A stretch of DNA of 64,000 bases from Raillietiella orientalis (Eukaryota), in the NCBI GenBank assembly GCA_036172245.1, contig JAYWIR010000012.1:1550001-1614000 (forward strand), written 5' to 3'. Shown piece by piece: positions 6,880 to 58,434 of this stretch (positions within the stretch are counted from its first letter, which is position 1; every line of letters starts with the position of its first letter). Under the pieces are notes generated by a model. It saw only the letters and a program-made list of their open reading frames with translations. It was not told where the DNA came from and did not search any database. Made by a program: the position numbers and the translations under genes.

Positions 6880-8250
6880 AGGAAAAGATAAGGAGGAGGA
6901 AAGTTCACGCACAAAAAATAAATAACAGAAAGACACAGGTTCAAGAGTTTGGGGGGAAGCGGTCCAGGAGTCCTCAGCTCTTTTTCCCGGATGCCAGCAA
7001 GTTCATCCCGATTGCTTTGTGGAATGTGACCATCTGATGGTCATCCTCAAAAATGAGATGTACATCAGGATGACGTCGCTGGTCCTTTCAGTCCTTTTTC
7101 TTAATGCTTCCTTGCTACCAGGACTGCACAAAGCTGCAATGGCGGTCAAGGGCGACATTGCGCTAGGCGTGCGGAGGAGCTTCAGCATGTTGTTTGGGTT
7201 GTTTCTTGGAGATTGGAGAGCCGTAAAGAGACGCTCCCACACAGTCCGGAGAACAACACACTCAAATAGCATGTGGTGGAAAGTTTCTGTTTCACCGCAT
7301 CTGACAGTCTGCAGCCACACTCATCCTTAGTCCATCCTCATATGTGGATGGTGGACTAGAGGTGGAAGAGTGAGCTGCATGGGATAGCCCTATGCGACAG
7401 TCGCAACACCGAGTCCTGTGCTTCAGAGCAAAGACGGAGGTGTCCGACAAAACCTCGGAGGCCTTTATTTCCTCAAGGGGATTCCAAGAAAATCTCTCCA
7501 GCGGAGAAGTCCTTTCGGGTGGTGTTGGCTTTGGAAGCATCGACCAGCTAATGAACCTCCTAACCTCTCAACATCTTTTTCTTTCCTGTAGTTTCGCAGG
7601 GCACCTCCCAAATTGTCGGTTGATCACCCTCCTTATTCCCTAGGAGGGAAAATAGTGCCTCCACCTCAACCAGGGTACTTTTCATCCAGGTGTTCTTCAT
7701 GGAGCTTTGCGATCTCTCCTGCAGCGAACGGCGAGCACCAGGGGACATCAGGGGGACACCAGGGGCATCACAGAAGCAGCAGTCACTGCGCGCTCCTGGC
7801 GTTGATTTTCGTCCATGTTAGAACTGTTTCCTGTTTTCAGACGTCAACACCCGTGGGAGAACAGGGAATCAAAGAGAAGTCCTGAACCAAGGCGACCCTC
7901 TGCCGAAGCTGAAGCCCGCCTCGGTGCAAGCTCCGGTGGCCGTAGGCGAGGAGAGATACCAATCCTTTGAAGCCGTCAGCTAGCTCGCTTCTCCAAGAGA
8001 CGTGCGTGAACGCATCAGTGTGTCCACCAACACTCGTCCGCCGGGGCAGTCTGCGGTACTGAGGGAGGACACCCAACCAGCATTCGTACGGAACAAGAAC
8101 TCCAATGACGCGTTTCCCTTTTTCAGTTTTGCTTTAGGATTCGTCGACAACCAGCTGCATTTGGACATGATTTTTGGTAGTCCAATTCATCTTCTTTCCC
8201 ACTGGAATCTCCACTGATAACCAATAATGCCCAAATGCTACATCGCCCCT
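6880..8250 (-). mobile_element. Decayed L1/Tx1-type LINE ORF2 3' half with T-rich 3' UTR, copy B
   Basis: LHRGGLQL (GGLGL motif, ~7920) and RCGETETFHHMLFECVVLRTVW (C-terminal Zn motif, ORF 7003-7320). Confidence 0.8.
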
Positions 8251-8671
8251 CAGGTTTTGCTTCCTTTTTTTTTGTTGTGGCTGCATCCTGAAGCTCCTCT
8301 AGATTACAATCCGAATTTCTCCCTTTTTTTACGAGGAGCATTTCAAAGTAAGAGCCGATCGGACATAAAGAAAGAACCAATAAGAGAAACAAACACGCAT
8401 TAGTGGTTCTAAACACATACATCCCCAGGTCATTTTTCTACGTAGTCACCATGTTTTTCCAAACACTTTTGATACCGTGGAACGAGCTCTTTTAATTCCT
8501 CTTCATAAAATTTTTCGGCCTGGGAGTTCAGCCAGTTCAGCAGCATTGCAGCTTTTAGCTCCTCATTTTCCTCGAATCGTTGAGATGGAAGAAGTCATTT
8601 CTTGAGGCGCAGGAAGGAGGACATCGTAGTCACTGGGAGCGAGGTCAGAACTATAAGGAGAGTGATCAAAA

Positions 8672-8799
8672 CGTGTTTTGAAAGTAGTAGATGAGAAAAA
8701 AATGTCTATGGAGGAGATAAGCAAGATGTTCAAAATTGATAGAAAAACAAGATATTAGTGGAGAAAAAGGAGAGAAGAAACAGGAAGCATAAAACCATC
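8672..8799 (+). pseudogene. IS630/Tc1-type transposase N-terminal HTH fragment, probably bacterial
   Basis: Translates RVLKVVDEKKMSMEEISKMFKIDRKTRY*WRKRREETGSIKP, fitting the IS630 pattern LRxRVL..SxxEIxxxFxIxRxTIYxWxKRxxETGS; AT-rich. Confidence 0.7.
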
Positions 8800-8871
8800 C
8801 CGCTATTTTAGCTGAAGTTCCTGACATAGAAACTTTTAGAGATGCCAGACAATTGGCAGCATATGCTGGAG
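8800..8871 (+). pseudogene. IS110-family transposase fragment (C-terminal domain)
   Basis: Translates AILAEVPDIETFRDARQLAAYAG, fitting the IS110 motif ILAExxDxxxFxxAxQLAAYAGL. Confidence 0.8.
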
Positions 8872-9139
8872 CGTTCCCATTTGAATTTCTGAGCTGCCTG
8901 GGCAGCAGTGTGTGTGCGCGCGTCGTCGAGAAGGAGAGCAATTCCTGATCTCAGCATTTCACGTCGTCGGTTCTGGATGGCACGGCGCAGTGTTGAAAGT
9001 GCTCCACAGTAGACTTGAGAAGTGATGGTGGTTGTTCCAGGCTCCATAAAGCTCATCAAAAGCACACCCTCTTGGTCCCACACACTGCTGTCTGCACATT
9101 CCAGACAATTCAGGAATTTAATGGGAACCTTTTGCATCC

Positions 9140-9400
9140 TCAGCTAGGCGGATAAATGACGGGGTGCCATCGAGAACGGTAAATTAAGGATGAGAGATCG
9201 GCTTCGACTGATTTCCTGGAGATGACTACCCACATCTCAAGTGCGAGGCTTGGTGCAAGGCGCACCAACGAGCGACGGCAGTCAGTGACTAATCGACCGA
9301 GCGAAATCAGCGTTTTAGGGATCTCCCGGTCTCGAAGGAGGCAAGATGGATGACTTAACATTAGCTCCAGTCTAACGTCTGGTACTAACATTAAAATCTG
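9140..9400 (-). mobile_element. Possible Tx1-type ORF1 fragment
   Basis: LLRDREIPKTLISLGRLV resembles the ORF1 IPxxLxIxG motif that precedes the zinc knuckle. Confidence 0.35.
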
Positions 9401-11599
9401 CACTCAGTCTCAATGAGGGAGAGGATATCGATCTCAATGAGACGTGGCAACTTAAAGAGTCAGACGTTTCGTGGGGATTTGTCACTTGACGGCGTCATTT
9501 TTCTGAGGCGTGTTCACTGTGACTGGAGCAGAGCGCAGGAGCGGTTGCACGCCAGAGAAGATCGCAAAGGCTGAGGTTTCGGCCTTAAAGGAACCAATTC
9601 AGGGACTTCAGTGTTTTCTTTCACAATTTCTTGCTAGTCTCCAGCCTCCCTCCTGTTCCCGTGTTCCTTCAACTTGCCTGACACCTTCGTCCGTGCCCTC
9701 AACACGTGCTTTCTCTCGCGAGAGTCGACGCACTGTTCTTCGCTGCAGCCAGGTCTCAACATCCCGTCTTCGCCTGCTCCAAATCTGCGCAAACGCCTTC
9801 TTCTTTCGGAGCAAAGTTTGCCCTTGAACACACCTCGGAAACCTGATGCCTCTGCAGCACAGCACAGCACAGCACACATCGGAACAGATTCTGCGATTTG
9901 ACAACGTATGCCGTGGGATGAGTAGCTGCTGCTGCTGGCAAATCCACAGATCGAACTCTCATCCACAACCACGAACCCATGGATCTCCTTTGACAGCCGT
10001 TCACGACGAGACGTCTATTCCAAATTGCAGCGATACACATAAAGGCAAGCAAAAGGAACCTTAGACAATGCAGACCAGGACATTGACTCCTGCCAAAGTT
10101 CGAGGAATCCTGTATAACCTGGAGTTCACCAGCTGACTTTACAGTAAGGTCTGCTCCGAGGAAGGAAGGAAAGAGGTAATGAAATGAAAAATGAAATCCC
10201 ATGCATCTTGTGCAGGATGATGGTGCAAGTTCTATTCTTAGGTCCCGAAAGCGAGTTCATCTCGCTGTGCTCCTCAAGAGGAAGGTCATCGTAAGGATTT
10301 GTACCCAGTGACTCTGAGGAGTTCATTAGAAAAATAAACCACAAATAAGAGGGGAACAGCGTTCTCAGAATAAAACAGATGCCGAAAAAAAGCACAAGTT
10401 CATTGGGGATGACCACGGACACACGCAGTCGTTTGTTGCCCGTTTGGAAGGAAGACTCAAGGACTTCATGAGTTGTCTTAGTATAAGACAACTCATGAAG
10501 TCCTTGAGTGAAGGGTGAGAAACTGGCTGCTGAGTGGTTCCCCAGCACGTGCCGGAGGGCAACTTAACCCGACAGTCGTGCCACCATGGACGACAGCGCT
10601 GCAGGGGAACATGCGGAAGTGTTGAGCAGCCATCATCCCGTTGGTCTTGAGTGAGCGAGTGGCGCATACTCGTCTCCTCATGGTGCAGTTGAACTCCTTG
10701 TGGCAGACCTCTCTTCCCGTTTCACCTTTCCTCCCGCCGGCTGGGGTGGTGACCGCTCTGGAAGAGCGAGTGTGGACCTTTCGCAGGGGAGGGCTCGGTG
10801 CTCTGTCAAAAGGGCTTCTGAAACTCCTTGCAGCTCATGCTGTGGGGTAGAGGTGGCTGGTTAGGCGAAGAAGCGCTTTTGACCGCCGAGACTCAGAGAT
10901 TTCGAGATGGAGGTGCACGAGAAGAGTGAAGGGAGAAGCAATTCCACCTATGTCTCAGAAGGTGGGGACCACGGCCAATGACGCAGTCCCCATACCCGTG
11001 TCCTGAAAGCCTTCAGCCGAAGTTCAGTCGCGCTTCCCTCGCATTCACGCGCCCCACCTCCCGACAGCGCGATTCAAGGAAACCTCTCATTCGGGGTATT
11101 TCGGCGGGGATTCGCCGTCCAGATTCCATCCCTGTTCGTCCGGTTCGATGCTGGGTTTCCGAAAGAGAGAGCTGGCGTGGACTTTCGGACCTCCGTGTCA
11201 GAGAAGTCAGAGAGTCCGCGTCTTCGGCGGGTAAACCCCTGACCCTCGGGAAAAAAAGGAAATGTCCGGTTGCGATGAGATTCGAAGATGCTGGGAAGCT
11301 GAGAAAAAGCGAGATAACACCACATCGCATTGAAACTTTCATTTCCTCAAGAGAAAAGACAGCGATCCTGTATTGTTCATCCCGAAATCCTCTCGTCTGG
11401 CAAGCACAGCCAAATAAGAGTGTGGGATTCATCCACAGAGGAAGAAAACGCTGCCACCTGAAGTGGTAAAAGCGGCGAAAGTCGCTTCTTCCTTCGGCTG
11501 CGAAAGAAAGGAAGCGCTCTCTCCATCGCAACCGGGATGGAGAAAGCTGCTCTAAGGAGGAATTGCAAGTAGACGCAAATGACCCGTGCGGCGGTCATT

Positions 11600-12189: not shown

Positions 12190-13800
12190 GCTTCAAAAAA
12201 AAAGAAATGAATGGAAGCAGACGAAAGCGATCCTCCATTTTCCTCCTCCATTCAAATCCTCCTGCTATTTTCGAGTGCTCTTGCACCAACGGCGGTGACC
12301 CACAGATGCTTCTGATGCATACTGGTTGTTCCGGAGGACCATCTCTCTTCTGACGCACCCTGCCTGCTTCTCGAAAATTCCCTCGGGACCTCTTTAGCTC
12401 CCCGAACCGAAGAACCCAGAGAACCTGCACTGTGGTTCCTTTTGCGGCAGCGGGAGCTCCTTCGGAGACAGAGAGCCAACCCTAGAAGTTCCTTTCTTTC
12501 TGCTCGCCTCTTGCGGTACTGGTGCAGAGCACTCGTGGGAGTGAGGCACGTCCGATACGGGTCCCTGCTCTTGTCTCTGAAGCGCCAGGCCCCTCTTTGG
12601 CTCGGAACTTGTCCCGGAAAAGGTCCGACCGTCGAACACTGCCTCCCAGCGTTTTAGGATGGCCTCGTTGTTGCGGGTCACCGGTTCCGCTGTGGATGGT
12701 CGGGACCTCTCACAATCACCGTGTGGTCGCTGACGCATCTTCTGGAAAGTCGATTCGCAGCGCACGGAGAAATCCCCTGGGAAGAGGCGTTTGCTGCCAT
12801 GTAGTAGTCCCAGAGCTGGCCAACGCAGGGTCTGGTCTTCTCCCGATCTAGGCGTTTTTCAATGAGGACTGACCGCGCTGCCTTGAGCTGAGCTGCAAGC
12901 GGGCTAGAGGCGATTTTTTTCTGGTACGCAAGCCGGCGGTCGTTTCCCCGACTGTAGAACTGAGCAGCCCCATTTTTCGTTAGGAGACCGGACGGCAGCT
13001 GCGGTTTTGAGAAGGGAGGGCTTCCTGTTTGGGAATTTCGCGCTTCCTCCGCGATAAATTCGGCTGGCTGTGATTGCAAAGTGGCGACGGGGGCTGCCAC
13101 CGTCGCGTCAAGGTCACGCTTCAAGGAACAGGAAACCCGCGAGCGCAAAATTCCTTCTCCCTTTTCCGGTTTCTCTTCCACGTGGAAATCGCGAGATGCA
13201 CGCGCGGTGCCCCTTCCTAGGCACACACGAGCACGCACGCCAGCAAATCACCCGGGTTGGCCCCGCGGGAGCTCTGCGCGTGCACGCTGGCCTTCCCGCG
13301 CTTTTTGAATATGTCTAGGTGAACTCCGGGTAGCGCGAAGCTGATCAGCGGATGCCTTTGCCGGACGAGTCCGCTGCTGCTGGAGAGTCTTCGCAGTACC
13401 GAAGCCTCGGAGAAGCGAATTGCTCTCAGCCTCGACGTGATTCCTTGCTCTCAGGCAATCCACACAGTATTCAGCGCATCCACCGTGGTTCCTTTTTCGA
13501 TTTGAGGTGCTCTCTGTTCTGACTCTGCTCAATGGGAGACGGCTTCCATGGTTTCCCTCCTTCCTTGCTCTTCTTCCTCACTGGTCCTCACCCGAAGACG
13601 TATCCAATCTAAAAGCAAAGAGCGAATTCGACCTCCCGCATGTCTGCAATCTCATTCTTGAGTAGGAGGCCCAAAGACCTCCTGCTTCTCGTGGAACGGA
13701 CCCAGCACGCGACTGCGGAGGCAAGGGCGGAAATCATGAGTCCGTTTCCGACTTCCAGGGGTGCCTGGAAATATTCGTATAGGGAATCGGGAGTTGAGGG
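12190..13800 (-). mobile_element. Decayed L1/Tx1-type LINE ORF2 3' part, copy H1 (inverted homolog of 22900-23488)
   Basis: SRVRTESTSNRKRNHGGC (GGL-like), CAANRL (cf. AANRFG/AANRYG in copies A and E), GPYRTCLTPTSALH (degenerate Zn motif), stop and T-rich tail; nucleotide match to 22930-23488. Confidence 0.65.
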
Positions 13801-19624: not shown

Positions 19625-20051
19625 AAAGATCCGCTCTTGGAAGCTCTTCTCTGGAGGAAACCCACAAGGGACGCTTCCGAATTTTTCCTGAAGGGCGCTG
19701 CCCGAAAGGAGCGGCACTCCTCTTAGACTCTGGAGAGGTGACATCAATCCACCAGAGCTCCATGCTACGAGATTAACAAAAGGGAGCAAACAGAGAGGGA
19801 ACCGGCCTCCTTGATTCTGTATCCTGGAAGGTCCCTGGAGGGTCAACTTCCATCCTAGCCACTCATCGGGGGCATCCGATTTTATCCGCTACCAGTGCCG
19901 CACCCGAATAGAGGCCAGACAACCAGCGTCATCTTGAAGGAGGAACTCGAAAACCACCCCCATCTCTCGGCGTCGATTTCTTCCGAGTATTCCAACCCGC
20001 GAAGTCTGATGCCACGCGCGGAGACCGTGACCACGCGGTCTCCAGAGCGGG
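19625..20051 (-). mobile_element. SINE copy 2 (3'-truncated)
   Basis: Degenerate head (rc GCGGGTTGGAATACTCGG) and body aligning to copies 1 and 7. Confidence 0.75.
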
Positions 20052-20599
20052 CCATCTCGGAGATCCTAAGGGACCCAGATACGCTACTCGGAGGCGCAGA
20101 TTTCTCTCTTCCTTAGCAGACAGACGATTTTCTCTGAATGACAACAAAATCACCCTTCGTGTCGGACTGATAGAAACCAGGGCAGGGAGAAGAGCTCATC
20201 CTGCGTGAGATGAAACTCGGTCCAAATGAGCATCCATCCTCGACAGGATCAGCTGTTCCTGGATGAGATGAGTTCATCCCAGAGGTGTGAGCTCCAATCT
20301 GAGCTCTAGGATTCGAGATGCTGGTGAAGACGCCCTCCATTCCGCATTCCATGGAAACGGTCCGGACTCTTCCGATTCCTAGATAAGCCGAGAATCAGAA
20401 AATCATTTGGAACTTCAGGATCCAGCATTAAACGAGCTCAGCGTCTGGAGGATATTTTTGGAAAGCAAAAAAAAAAAAAACAAGGCAAATTGAGATTTGC
20501 ACAAGCAAAATTTCATCACTTGGCTGCGCAGTTTTTAACAGCAGCTGTGCAGCGCATTGCATCGTTTAAATTTCTGAGCGTAACACTCTTGGACCCGAG

Positions 20600-22899: not shown

Positions 22900-23488
22900 G
22901 CAAAAGATAGGAAGAATCGCCATGCCACGCCTCGACAGATGCGTCGGCAACCATGCGATGATTGCTGGAGTTATTGTCGATGGTCCGGACCATCCGCAAG
23001 AACTCGGAAGGGAAATTGTGAAACGCTGGGAGCTGACGTCCCTTGGTCGGCCTTTTCCTGGGCAGGTCTTTTCCGGATCAGGGAGAGACCTGGCGCTCAA
23101 GGGAAGAGGGCAGGGAGCCGTATCGGACGTGCCTCACTCCCAATAGTGCTCTACAGCAGCACCGCAAGAGGCGAACAGAAAGAAGGGAACTTCTAGGGTT
23201 AGCTCTTTGTCTCCGAAGGAGCTCCCGCTGCCACAAGAGGAACCGCAGTGCAGGTTCTCTGGGTTCCTCTTCGGTTCGGGGAGCTAAAGAGGTCCCGAGG
23301 GAATTTTCGAGAAGCAGGCAGGGTGCGTCAGAAGAGAGATGGTCCTCCGGAACAACCAGTGTGCATCAGAAGCATCTGTGGGTCACCGCCGTTGGTGCAA
23401 GAGCACTCGAAAATAGCAGGAGGATTTGAATGAAGGAGTAATATGAAGGATCTCTTTCGTCTGCTTCCATTCATTTTTTTTTTTTTCA
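22900..23488 (+). mobile_element. LINE ORF2 3' end, copy H2
   Basis: Reverse-complement match to 12190-12760, ending CGTCTGCTTCCATTCA(T)n. Confidence 0.7.
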
Positions 23489-34785: not shown

Positions 34786-35528
34786 TTCTTTTTTGGTTTG
34801 TTAACTACTCAAGAATCGCTCAAGGAAAAGGGGGGTCACGATGCTCTTTGACACTGTACACGGCACCCGAGGTGCCTGTAACTCTTCAATTTATAGAGGG
34901 GTACTCCAGGAGGGACCACCTTATGAATCCTGGAAGGCTCCGGAAGGAGTCCGTTCCCCCTACACATGGGAAGGAATCGCTCGTTTTGGTTGCCTTCGGA
35001 AGGACCACTCCTCATTTCTTCCCTGAAGAGAACCGGACCCACTCCTGAAATTTGTTCTCCGAAGCAAGGGAACCGCTCCTGGTTTCCTATTCTGAAGAGA
35101 ACTCCGAAGAGATGCCGGGGATCTCCTTTTTCAAAGAAGAGTTTGAAGGGATGCTTCCTAATTTCTATGGAGGTAGTTTCCCAAAGGGAGCAACAGAGCA
35201 CTTGACACTCTGGAGAAATAATCCCCGAGGGGGGTGTCAGCCAGCTTTATGGTACGCGATGGAGGGTGCCCCGAAAGATCGGGCGGGTTTCATTTGCACA
35301 ACTAAAGTGGAACCCAAAGGGAACCGGCCCCTGATTCCTGCAAGGACTCCGGGGGGTGAACTTCCATAGCCTACAGGCCAGCCATTGTCATCCTGCCGGA
35401 TAGGAGACTGGAAACCCTCGACGCACCACCCTCCATTTCCTGGCGTCGATCCTTCTCCGGGCGGGATTCGAACCCGCAACGCTCGCTGCCACCCGCAGAG
35501 ACCTCAGCTACAAGGCAGCTAGCGCGGG
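34786..35528 (-). mobile_element. SINE copy 4
   Basis: rc GCGGGTTCGAATCCCGC (35461-35477), shared body and tail. Confidence 0.85.
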
Positions 35529-35714
35529 CATCGGAAGTCCGTGCTCCTAAGCCCGACCTCACGCTGCAAGGCGGCCTTTCTTGACCCGGCTTGCACCTTG
35601 AAGAGCTTTCGTGCGGCTGGTGAACCGCAGGCCTGTCGGCTGCTCGGCAGAAATCTTGCTGAGGGTGCGCCCCTGACTGCGTGCCCCTTTTTTTCCGGGA
35701 AGCTTTTCACCCGG

Positions 35715-44699: not shown

Positions 44700-46000
44700 T
44701 CGACCACACCGTGCGTGAGATAGTTTCAAAGTTCAGGAGAGCACGGGGACGTTGAGGCTGCCTGAAAGCCAACGGAGGAGCAGAAGTGACGATCTCCTAG
44801 CCAGAAGAAAGCAACCCGAAAGTTGCAAGACGAGGAAGCTTACGACGGACGACGCATTTCGAACAGCTGTTGACTTCAGCTTCCGTTTAAAATTCAGGGA
44901 TTGCTTCCATGTTCTCCGGAAAATTCCCGTTCCCAATTCTCGATCTGATGTCTTGAAACGACGGCAGAAGAGCCAGCTGGCCCTTACTGCAAACTCTGGA
45001 AATTCAAAAAAAGGGACAGGAAGAGTCGCTCGCCAGGTAGGAGGCCCCAATGAGGAAACTCTGCCATGATACAAAAGGAGACGCGGAAAGTAGTTTCGGC
45101 GACTCCAATCAAAACCTTCATTTTAGGTTTTTGGATATCAACCTTCTTCAACACAGTTTTTCTTTTTGCATTTAGGAAGCTGCTCTGCAGCTCTTGAGAT
45201 GCCAGGATTTCCTTTGAGAGTAAACTATGTCAACATCTTACCCTGTGAGCTTTTTGGTGCTGCTATGGTAAGCGATTACCAGTTTTGAGGTGCTCTCCTT
45301 CTTCAGAAGAGCTTCTTTTATCCTTTTCCAGGGTGCAAGACCGATTTGAGTCTCACGCCCAGGAGACGAGCGGTCTCTAGGCATCCGCCAACTTCTATCC
45401 TGCTCTCACCCGCAACTCGCTTTGAAAGCCGAGAGCAGCAAGAAAAGCGAGAAGCAAGTCGACTGCATCCTGCAGCGGTGCTCGTGGTACCAAAACTTCC
45501 AGACTCCAGAAAGAAACTCTTGAAATGACCATCTTTTGGGTATTTGGATTCAGGAGGCGTCACAGGAGAAATTCCCAGAAAGAGCTGTTTCAACACCTCC
45601 GTCGTCAATGCGACGTCGGTTCTCGATCGCAGATCCGGAGTAGCGAATGCTCGCACCACGATCCGGAGTTGAAGGCTTAAGAGGTGTTTTGACAAATGCA
45701 TCTTTGCCAGTCTTCCTCTTGGCAGTGAATCCTCTCTTGCACTGCGGAAATCGACTGGCCATTTCGCCTCGAGGGAACCGCAAGATTCGTCTGACCCTAA
45801 AGTGGCAGAACTGCAAACACTCTTTGCCAACATCCCTTGAATTCCGGGAAATCATTTGTCGAAGAACGACAAAACACGGATGGAAAGCAGAGCTAGAAGA
45901 GTCACACATGGATTGGTGTTCCGTCGGTGATCATCCCGAATGCGTCGACCATCAAAAAACTGGAATTCCCAATATGGATGCTGCAAAATTCACCTGTTCT
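44700..46000 (-). mobile_element. Decayed LINE ORF2 3' half, copy J1
   Basis: ASILGIPV, DSLPRGRLAKMHLSKHLLSLQLRIVVRA and LLYHGRVSSLG..PFFEFPEFA..LFCRRFK. Confidence 0.6.
45286..45801 (+). repeat. Direct repeat, copy 1 of 2 (partner 48492-49003)
   Basis: About 17 substitutions plus one 4-bp indel over ~512 bp by eye. Confidence 0.95.
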
Positions 46001-48099: not shown

Positions 48100-49003
48100 G
48101 TGTCAAACTCACGAGGATGCAACCTCTTAGGAGCGCTGGTTGAGAACAGACCTCCAATTAGAAGTCAAGGGAATCGGCTTCTCCTCTCTCCAGATGCCAA
48201 AATGGAAGAATACACCGAATGCAACAGTCGATAACGAAGTGTCTCTATTCTTTCCCGGTAGGCTGAAATTGCTAGTAACGATCGCATTTGATCTGCCGTT
48301 TGAGAGAGTCTCTCGTCCAAAGACTACTTTCCTTCGAAAAAGATCATCGCAGATCTTGATTGTCAAGGAAGAAATTGCATCTTTCTCAGCGGAATTCTCG
48401 ATTTTAAATAAGAATAGGCAAGAGTTAGGTAGCCGATCACATACGGCGAAGTCGGCTGAGAGAGGCTGATCATGGAAGCAATAATCAGCCGTGAGATGCT
48501 CTTCTTCTTCAAAAGAGCTTCTTTTATCCTTTTCCAGGGTGCAAGACCGATTTGAGTCTCACGCCCAGGAGACGAGCGGTCTCTAGGCATCCGCCAACTT
48601 CTATCCTGCTCTCACCCGCAACTCGCTTTGAAAGCCGAGAGCAGCAAGAAAAGCGAGAAGTCGACTGCATCCTGCAGCGGTGCTCGTAGTATCGAAACTT
48701 CCAGACTCCAGAAAGAAACTCTTGAAATGATCATCTTTTGGGTCTTTGGATTCAGAAGGCGTCACAGGAGAAATTCCCAGAAAGAGCTGTTTCAACACCT
48801 CCGTCGTCAATGCAACGTCCGTTCTCGATCGCAGATCCGGAGTAGCGAATGCTCGCATCACGATCCGGAGTTGAAGGCTTAAGAGGTATTTTGACAAATG
48901 CATCTTTGCCAGTCTTCCTCTTGGCAGTGAATCCTCTCTTGCACTGCGGAAATCGACCGACCATTTCACCTCGAGGGCACCGCAAGATTCGTCTGACCCT
49001 AAA
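48100..49003 (-). mobile_element. LINE ORF2 fragment J2, including direct repeat copy 2 (48492-49003)
   Basis: Near-identical tract to J1 followed by RERIETLRYRLLHSVYSSILASGER (pre-Zn motif). Confidence 0.65.
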
Positions 49004-51667: not shown

Positions 51668-52512
51668 TCCTCTTTTTCCTTGACTCGCTAAATGTTGAAG
51701 AACCGTCCGCCTTCTTAGGGGAGACTCACCAAGCTCTTTGACACCGTCCACGCCATCCGAAGGGCGTGTGACTCTTCAGGTTATAGAGGGTATCCCCTAA
51801 GCGACCACCTAATGGATCCAGGAAGGCTCCGGAAGAAGGAGTCCGTTCCTCTGACGCTTGGAAGGGAGGGAACTCCGAAGGAAACCCTCGTCCTCGTTGT
51901 CTACGAAGGGAGCCCCGAAGGGAAGAGATTCTTACTTGTTCTCTCTGGAGGGACCCTCCGGTTTCTAGGGCCACTTCTCATTTCTTCTTCAGAGGGAACC
52001 TGCAAGGGAACCGCTCCTTCTTTACTCTTCTGAAGAGAACCCTGAAGGGACGCTTCCCGTTTTTTCTGAGGCGCGCTCTTCAAAGGGAGCAGTGCGTTTC
52101 TGACACCCTGGAGCAGCAATCCCCGAGGGGGGCATCAACCAGCTCCATGGATCGCGATGAAAGGTCCATCCAGAAAGAGGAAGAACGGCTCCATTTTCAC
52201 AACCGTGAAAAACCCCGAAGGACTCTTTGATATGCTGGAAGGACCCCAGAGGTCCAACTTCCAATCCCGTACAGCCAGCAGGTCAGGATTGGAAGCCAGT
52301 CAACAGGATCATCCGGTTTCATCCGGTTTCCAGATTCCACTGATGCTGCACTCGAAGCCTTCAGGTCACCGCGCTGGTGACCTGAAGGCGGGGGGACTCG
52401 AAACCCACGACTCACCCATTTCTCGGCGTGGAAAATTTCCCAGGTGGGATTCAAACCCTCAACGTTTTGCACCACTCCCGGCAGCCGCAGCCTGCACAGC
52501 TGCCACCGTGGG
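51668..52512 (-). mobile_element. SINE copy 7 (full length)
   Basis: rc GGGTTTGAATCCCACC head, second motif GGGTTTCGAGTCCCCC, shared body and tail. Confidence 0.85.
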
Positions 52513-52519
52513 CTGGGTG

Positions 52520-57400: not shown

Positions 57401-57649
57401 GGGAGGCGTGCGCGTCACTTCCCTGGAGATCTGCCCGAGATTCAGATCGAGCCGCCGTCCGGATTAAGTCCTGACGAACCGCCGCCTCGGGTGGGAGCGG
57501 AAGCAGCGGGAACGGCTAGGCTGCGAACCCCCTAGTCATTGGCTGCACCTCAGACCCATCATCTGCAAAAACGGGCATGAGTGAAAGTGTTCCCTGAATG
57601 AGGCCGCTCCAAATAGAGAACTCAACGTTCATGATCTGGGAAGAAGTTC

Positions 57650-58434
57650 CCCGCGCTAGCGGCCATGTGGCTGCGGCTTCCGAGCGTGGCACCGGGCGTT
57701 GCGGGTTCGAATCCCGTACGAGGAAGGATCGACACCAGAGAAATAGAGGAGTGCGTCGTGAGTTTCGAGTCCCTCCCTTCAGTATGACGCTGGTTGGCCT
57801 GCAGGTTTCTGGAGGGCACTGGTGGAACCCGGAAACTCCCGTTGACTCGCCAGGTTCGGAAGTGGACTTTCCAGGATCCTTCCGGGAACCACTGAAACCT
57901 TCGAGGTTTTTCCATCCGGTTGTGAAAATGGAGCCGTCCTTCCTCACCCAGGGAGGAGGAACACTCCGCCGCATTCCATGGAGCTGGTTGATGCCCCCCT
58001 CGGTGGGTTGCCTCTCCAGGGTGTCGGAAGATGCTGCTTGCTTAGGGAAGCTCCCTTCAGAGAAAATGGAAAGCATCCCATCAGGGTTCTTTTCAGAGGA
58101 GAAAACAAAGAAGGAGCGGTTCCCGTGCAGCTTCGCTCTGGAGAAGAAATTCAGGAACGGATCCTTTCCGGAGAAGAAATGCAAGGAGCGGTCCCTTTTG
58201 GAGATAACCAGGGGCGAGGGTTCTCTTCAGGGTTTCCTCGCAAGCGTAAGAGGAACGGACTCCTTCCCCAGGATCATTCCTAGATTTGTAAGGTGGACCC
58301 TCTGGAGCGCCCCTTATAATTTGGAAAGTCACACGCACCCTCGGTTGGCGTGGACGGTGTCCAAGAGCATCGTGAGCTCTCCCTAAGTAGGCGGACGGCT
58401 CTTCAGCACCCCTTGAGAACCAAAAAAAAAAAAA
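57650..58434 (+). mobile_element. SINE copy 8 (full length, clearest poly-A)
   Basis: A-box-like TAGCGGCCATGTGG, B-box GGTTCGAATCCC at 57704-57715, second GTTTCGAGTCCC at ~57762-57773, tandem block ~58080-58240, two hairpins, A13 at 58422-58434. Confidence 0.9.

Follow-up and report, generated by a model that had tools for sequence, protein, structure and literature searches.

A 200-bp patch of IS630- and IS110-family gene fragments matching Wolbachia-type genomes interrupts a decayed mariner

The mariner relic and its interruption

Remains of a decayed mariner transposase were found on the minus strand at 8430-9143 of the window (the whole stretch of 64 kb that was analysed), as judged from ORFs and from reading of the sequence, and they are interrupted at 8672-8871 by an AT-rich patch of 200 bp. 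The part encoding the catalytic domain occupies 8872-9143 on the minus strand (…VWDQEGVLLMSFMEPGTTTITSQVY…LLLDDARTHTAAQAAQKFKWER) and relates to PF01359 and Mos1, while the C-terminal part covers 8430-8671 on the same strand (…RFDHSPYSSDLAPSDY…, then a frameshift, then …FYEEELKELVPRYQKCLEKHGDYVEK) and relates to the C-terminus of SETMAR. ORF 8808-9143(-), which terminates in the mariner peptide …LLLDDARTHTAAQAAQKFKWER, scored above the Pfam cut-off for PF01359 Transposase_1 (36.7 bits against a cut-off of 24, E 4e-9) and thus displays a mariner-type catalytic domain; among PDB chains it aligned to residues 197-259 of the Mos1 transposase (E 6.5e-5) and to SETMAR. RFDHSPYSSDLAPSDY is contained in ORF 8563-8754(-), and ORF 8430-8594(-), which terminates in …LVPRYQKCLEKHGDYVEK, aligned to the C-terminus of the SETMAR mariner domain (E 0.0038).

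The mariner reading frame is disrupted by frameshifts and by the patch. Beyond ~9143 the element appears to be truncated or unrecognisable, its 5' half missing. Neither a second mariner nor a second copy of the patch was encountered within the 64-kb window, and protein word searches with the mariner piece returned no match. Its nearest Atlas clusters were 100% Eukaryota, with Arthropoda most frequent, which is to be taken as a lead only.

The preliminary description had stated that removal of ~198 bp rejoins the mariner frame. The rejoined frame, KFKWE-R-FDHSPYS, was indeed recovered; the period had to be corrected to 200 bp, since the R codon after KFKWE lies at 8873-8871 in one mariner frame and at 8673-8671 in the other. 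The codon boundaries of both frames are therefore exactly 200 apart, so that a deletion of 200 bp restores the peptide. The halves being in frame, a single mariner relic lies on both sides of the patch, in agreement with the colinear eukaryotic flanks described earlier. ACG had also been noted at both junctions, and CGT on the plus strand (ACG on the mariner strand) was read at 8672-8674 and at 8872-8874.

With a GC content of 36.5%, against 50.2% in 2 kb of flanks, the patch is as AT-rich as had been claimed; of all stretches of 200 bp in the 64 kb, only 0.19% reach this AT-richness. Two bacterial reading frames were recognised in it, an IS630-type frame (8666+3n) and an IS110-type frame (8793+3n). 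Both run on the plus strand, antisense to the mariner, and they are mutually out of phase, as expected from the out-of-frame joining of an IS630-type helix-turn-helix to an IS110 part that had been proposed.

The surrounding 64 kb

The window has a GC content of 52%. Its TpA dinucleotides are strongly depleted (o/e 0.44), yet CpG is near-normal (o/e 0.84). None of 138 long ORFs (113 aa or more) displayed a Pfam domain at E<=1e-4, and the 64 kb therefore seem gene-poor; these ORFs were hand-picked from 169 of at least 110 aa, the mariner ORF being excluded from the set and scanned separately. ARAGORN detected no tRNA in the window. Wolbachia-like DNA outside the patch was not found anywhere in the 64 kb by comparison with five of the bacterial genomes that match the patch best (G085, G086, G097, G082 and G050).

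Several repeats were observed. Copies of a repeat with the tRNA T-arm-like sequence GGGATTCGAACCCGC lie in direct orientation at 869-965, 19960-20056, 35437-35533 and 52420-52516, and in inverted orientation at 57646-57738. They are 61-82% alike, and the repeat resembles a host SINE family derived from a tRNA. A direct repeat of ~500 bp (45259-45755 and 48465-48957), 93-97% identical and with a spacing of 3.2 kb, could have arisen by local duplication or mark both ends of an LTR-type element. Inverted arms of ~410 bp (12195-12607 and 23071-23486), 86-97% complementary and 10.5-10.9 kb apart, may bound a large DNA transposon or have arisen by inverted duplication. With a mariner relic, SINE-like repeats and 138 ORFs devoid of Pfam hits, the surroundings look eukaryote-like; they do not display a bacterial gene density, which fits a large eukaryotic genome.

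The IS630-family piece

The first portion of the patch is an IS630-family fragment (8670-8799, plus strand), which corresponds to the 5' coding part of a transposase and is restricted to the helix-turn-helix region (…RVLKVVDEKKMSMEEISKMFKIDRKTRY, a stop, then WRKRREETGSIKPS). Translated through the stop as X, it reads SKRVLKVVDEKKMSMEEISKMFKIDRKTRYXWRKRREETGSIKPS, the helix-turn-helix start of an IS630 transposase. Its score against HTH_Tnp_IS630 was 19.9 bits, slightly under the cut-off of 21.3. The patch is devoid of the DDE_3 catalytic domain and of IS630 terminal inverted repeats with a TA duplication, homology to IS630 being confined to the helix-turn-helix coding part at 8670-8799. A related source element, L010 of genome G050, matches NF033545 ('IS630 family transposase') and displays HTH_Tnp_IS630 as well as DDE_3.

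The two closest bacterial copies are L008 of genome G097, with 116 of 122 aligned bases identical (116 of 130 columns when one 8-bp gap is counted), and L009 of genome G082, with 114 of 130. Expressed over patch bases 1-128 (8672-8799), identities were 89% to G097 (in two places), 88% to G082 and 86% to G050, G053 and G096. Five substitutions of the piece are absent from both L008 and L009. One of them creates the TAG stop at 8756-8758 (plus strand), where L008 and L009 have TGG, encoding the tryptophan of a conserved …TIYWW… motif; judging by these copies, the stop is a decay mutation. L008 (G097:C1:259957-263076) is itself a pseudogene, with an 8-bp deletion in its helix-turn-helix part and a fragmented ORF. 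A tblastn search of the 30-aa IS630 ORF against phages gave no match. The host's own DNA of the Tc1/IS630 superfamily was also considered as source of this first half and was ruled out by the 86-89% nucleotide identity of the bacterial copies.

The IS110-family piece

The remainder of the patch derives from the interior of an IS110-family transposase gene (8802-8872, plus strand). Its translation, AILAEVPDIETFRDARQLAAYAG, corresponds approximately to residues 218-241 of a source ORF of 344 aa. The IS110 assignment of the preliminary description was borne out by a match of this peptide to PF02371 Transposase_20 (IS116/IS110/IS902 family; 27.5 bits, cut-off 21.3, E 4.3e-6), which spans only positions 17-47 of 87, and by identity at 67 of 69 bases to copy L015 of genome G086, homology extending from 8802 to 8870-8872. 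The piece maps to positions 235-263 of NF033542, the NCBIfam model of IS110. The G086 source is a 344-aa ORF displaying both DEDD_Tnp_IS110 and Transposase_20, and it reaches 229 bits with NF033542 ('IS110 family RNA-guided transposase').

Over patch bases 131-199, identities were 97% to G086, 96% to G085 and 93% to G039, G096 and others. Both differences from L015 recur in other bacterial copies (L019) and therefore need not be decay. Patch bases 131-200 also match, at 88.6%, two records of phage WO from wMel, under a gene annotated 'mobile element protein'.

The DEDD (RuvC-like) domain PF01548 is absent from the window. Homology is limited to 8802-8872, inside the transposase gene; neither IS110 ends nor the non-coding end that would carry a bridge/guide RNA are present, and an Rfam scan of the window yielded no match. 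Both pieces thus derive from elements such as the IS110 and IS630 elements of Wolbachia, of which the window retains only ~7% of an IS110 gene and the opening ~130 bp of an IS630 gene; unlike those elements, the patch lacks catalytic domains, ends and a non-coding end capable of carrying a guide RNA. Functionally it is neither an IS110 nor an IS630 element, since the defining domains and ends of both are missing. Lacking IS ends, a DEDD or DDE domain and the non-coding end of IS110, it is a relic, as had been concluded before.

Bacterial source of the two pieces

A pattern scan of species-representative genomes led to one contig, CACPSE010000036.1, 'uncultured Wolbachia sp.' (genome G001). The family of this genome was searched in 98 genomes, with eight candidates per genome scored, and 41 of the 98 matched the patch at E<=0.001. 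From the whole order, 401 genomes were drawn and 400 scored, with two candidates per genome; only six of the 400 reached E<=1e-22, and all six belonged to the G001-family set. Matches in the phage collection were restricted to Wolbachia phage WO. The plasmid collection gave only two matches of 40 bp, to replication genes of Clostridium perfringens, which were taken as chance.

Searched separately against bacterial genomes, both halves found counterparts, with best nucleotide E values of 9e-44 for the IS630 piece and 4e-27 for the IS110 piece, too low for chance matches. The prokaryotic source claimed for both halves is borne out by the identities to G001-family genomes, up to 89% and 97% respectively, and by the match to phage WO. 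By nucleotide comparison both pieces are bacterial, belong to families IS630 and IS110 and match genomes of Wolbachia type.

That the two fragments are non-contiguous had also been proposed, and the halves are adjacent in none of the 98 G001-family genomes: no alignment crossed patch bases 128-131 among the eight candidates per genome. The closest arrangement was found in G050, in which two genes separate an IS630 copy from an IS110 copy located 3.4 kb away on the same strand. Neither the IS630|IS110 joint nor the IS110 variant of the window was matched exactly in metagenome and viral contig collections. No reference genome was highly identical to both pieces. G097, the best donor for IS630, carries the IS110 piece at only 89%; in the best IS110 donors, G086 and G085, no IS630 match was found among eight candidates per genome. 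The donor strain, as far as these comparisons indicate, is outside the reference set.

The joints

Joints were read base by base from the assembled sequence and from the source copies. At the left joint, the mariner sequence before insertion (…ATCAAAACGT|TCCC…) and the IS630 source (…GGGAACGTGTTTTG…) share AACGT (8670-8674), a microhomology of five nucleotides, and BLAST homology to the IS630 source accordingly starts at 8670. Between the two pieces lie two filler bases (CC, 8800-8801) matching neither source, BLAST alignments stopping at 8799 and resuming at 8802. At the right joint, zero to one base is shared. Since AACGT also occurs in the IS630 source, the duplicated ACG is explained without a target duplication. 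A target-site duplication of ACG/CGT was accordingly rejected, the left copy being also within the IS630 source.

The microhomology-mediated repair proposed in the preliminary description holds for the left joint, with its AACGT, but not for the internal joint with its two filler bases or for the right joint with zero to one base. An overlap of five nucleotides at the left, a filler of two in the middle and zero to one nucleotide at the right argue for mixed end joining, not for a purely microhomology-mediated process.

As assembled, the mariner halves flank the patch on both sides in one contig, and the junctions described are those of the assembly. A single low-depth run came up, X1 (probably DNA; Logan contigs, with 0.07 of the words), and no RNA run; X1 yielded 18 pieces on 8000-9700. 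One of these was identical to 8210-8360; the remaining ones were mariner relatives, mostly less than 90% alike. The run leaves 8627-8911 uncovered, and nothing in it bridges the patch. In one of its contigs, mariner position 8584 is linked to position 9121 on the opposite strand, suggesting that some relatives of the mariner are rearranged in the X1 data.

Origin of the patch

We consider it probable (roughly 0.7) that the patch is a small nuclear Wolbachia-type insert (nuwt), of which two pieces were end-joined into a break in a resident mariner. Fragments of DNA from a symbiont living or lysed in the germ line would have been present in a germ-line nucleus, and a chromosomal double-strand break inside the already resident mariner would have been the point of entry. 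A piece of 130 bp taken from the beginning of an IS630-family transposase gene and one of ~70 bp from the central part of an IS110-family transposase gene would have been joined together, and host end joining would have ligated them into the break, leaving microhomology at the left end, filler bases between the pieces and an almost blunt right end. Neutral decay of the patch would have followed. The patch is presumably without function now, neither transposing nor coding, and disrupts a mariner that was probably dead or dying. Transposition of either IS was excluded, since there are no ends or catalytic domains and the IS110 piece is internal to its gene.

Wolbachia-to-host transfers are widespread and, in Brugia malayi, 'Most nuwts are 100-200 bp' and mostly outside genes (PMC3849323). 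The patch resembles the nuwts of arthropods and nematodes in being non-functional DNA of Wolbachia type that probably lies within host chromosomal DNA, and its size class matches. It differs from typical nuwts, which are one colinear stretch, in being a two-piece mosaic of two IS families and in lying inside a host mariner. PMC10083226 describes, in the butterfly Aphantopus hyperantus, a Wolbachia sequence X with ISWpi4 that is located in a chromosome and is AT-richer than its flanks. The patch shares with it the probable occurrence of Wolbachia IS DNA in a eukaryotic chromosome and the AT-richness relative to the flanks. The insert of A. hyperantus is an IS with Wolbachia flanks, and its authors read it as an IS-linked transfer (PMC10083226). 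In contrast, the patch comprises only internal gene fragments without IS ends or Wolbachia flanks, and transposition can therefore not have placed the pieces.

Mosaic NUMTs and NUPTs consist of short, sometimes non-adjacent fragments of organelle DNA that end joining has captured at double-strand breaks, with zero to five nucleotides of microhomology and a few filler bases. The patch resembles these mosaics in its joints; their donor is an organelle, whereas an endosymbiotic bacterium is the donor here.

Both pieces could also stem from one longer Wolbachia stretch (an IS-dense island, a prophage region or a larger nuwt) with co-oriented IS630 and IS110 copies, later reduced by an internal deletion, or by a template switch in repair synthesis, to ends of 130 and 70 bp. 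Such a donor would account for both pieces being IS-derived and having the same (sense) orientation; the G050 copies 3.4 kb apart are on the same strand and in the correct order, and in G039 an IS630-like and an IS110 piece lie within 2 kb, on opposite strands. Against it, hand inspection of the genomes matching both pieces found a co-oriented pair within 5 kb only in G050, neither adjacency nor the CC joint occurred in any of the 98 genomes, metagenome and viral contigs contained no exact copy of the chimeric joint, and the 64 kb hold no further Wolbachia-like DNA. We regard this single-donor route as unlikely, though it is the likeliest of the rivals. Donors other than Wolbachia, namely another intracellular bacterium, a phage or a plasmid carrying the same IS families, appear very improbable: all six strong matches among the 400 scored genomes of the order fell in the G001-family set, plasmids gave only the two chance-like Clostridium matches, and phages only phage WO. 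In favour of such a donor, IS are transferred horizontally among bacteria, the IS630 piece reaches no more than 86-89% identity when gaps are counted, and what is established for the matching genomes is just the family of a Wolbachia-titled genome.

Symbiont DNA is a frequent contaminant of arthropod and nematode sequencing data, and symbiont reads might have been misbuilt into the host contig, for instance by way of chimeric reads or errors in polishing. The frequency of such DNA, together with the lack of reads over the patch in X1, the one run found, would speak for an assembly or library artefact. This would require three false joints in 200 bp, exact resumption of the host sequence and restoration of the mariner frame. 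Ligation chimeras arise from long fragments, whereas the pieces here measure 130 and 70 bp, and five overlapping nucleotides are too few to misguide an assembler. The five substitutions of the IS630 piece outside the two closest bacterial copies, including the stop, fit residence in the host, not a fresh contaminant. An artefact is accordingly judged improbable.

Insertion-sequence origin of both pieces and its meaning

Table 1 of PMC3205602 gives, for four Wolbachia genomes, an IS share of 2.6-11%, with IS110 (6-39 copies) and IS630 (3-15 copies) present in all four. By these figures, the chance that both members of a random pair of fragments stem from IS would be ~1% or less. Possible reasons for the double IS origin of the patch are ascertainment by a reader attentive to transposase motifs, an IS-dense donor region or a bias towards free IS DNA. 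The last would mean that free IS intermediates or transcripts are the form of bacterial nucleic acid that preferentially enters break repair in the host, and that the double origin is not an accident of ascertainment, which strikes us as a long shot. Its sources may be excised IS110 circles, excised IS630 copies, or transposase mRNA reverse-transcribed by the host with template switching. If true, such a preference would be an undescribed bias in the flow of DNA from symbiont to host; should many patches in the same genome prove IS-derived, this would speak for a real bias in captured bacterial DNA. In a milder variant, the patch may be a fossil left by an earlier infection, the host lineage being without Wolbachia today.

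Wolbachia-to-host transfers of 100-200 bp are common (PMC3849323), and the patch adds one case to a well-documented flow. As a single locus, a neutral scar, it carries little weight. It would mark the host lineage as having once harboured a symbiont of Wolbachia type, whose IS variants are outside the reference set, and its joints (a 5-nt overlap, a 2-nt filler and a blunt end) document the repair route at base level. Patches of this kind inside host repeats should not be filtered as contamination.
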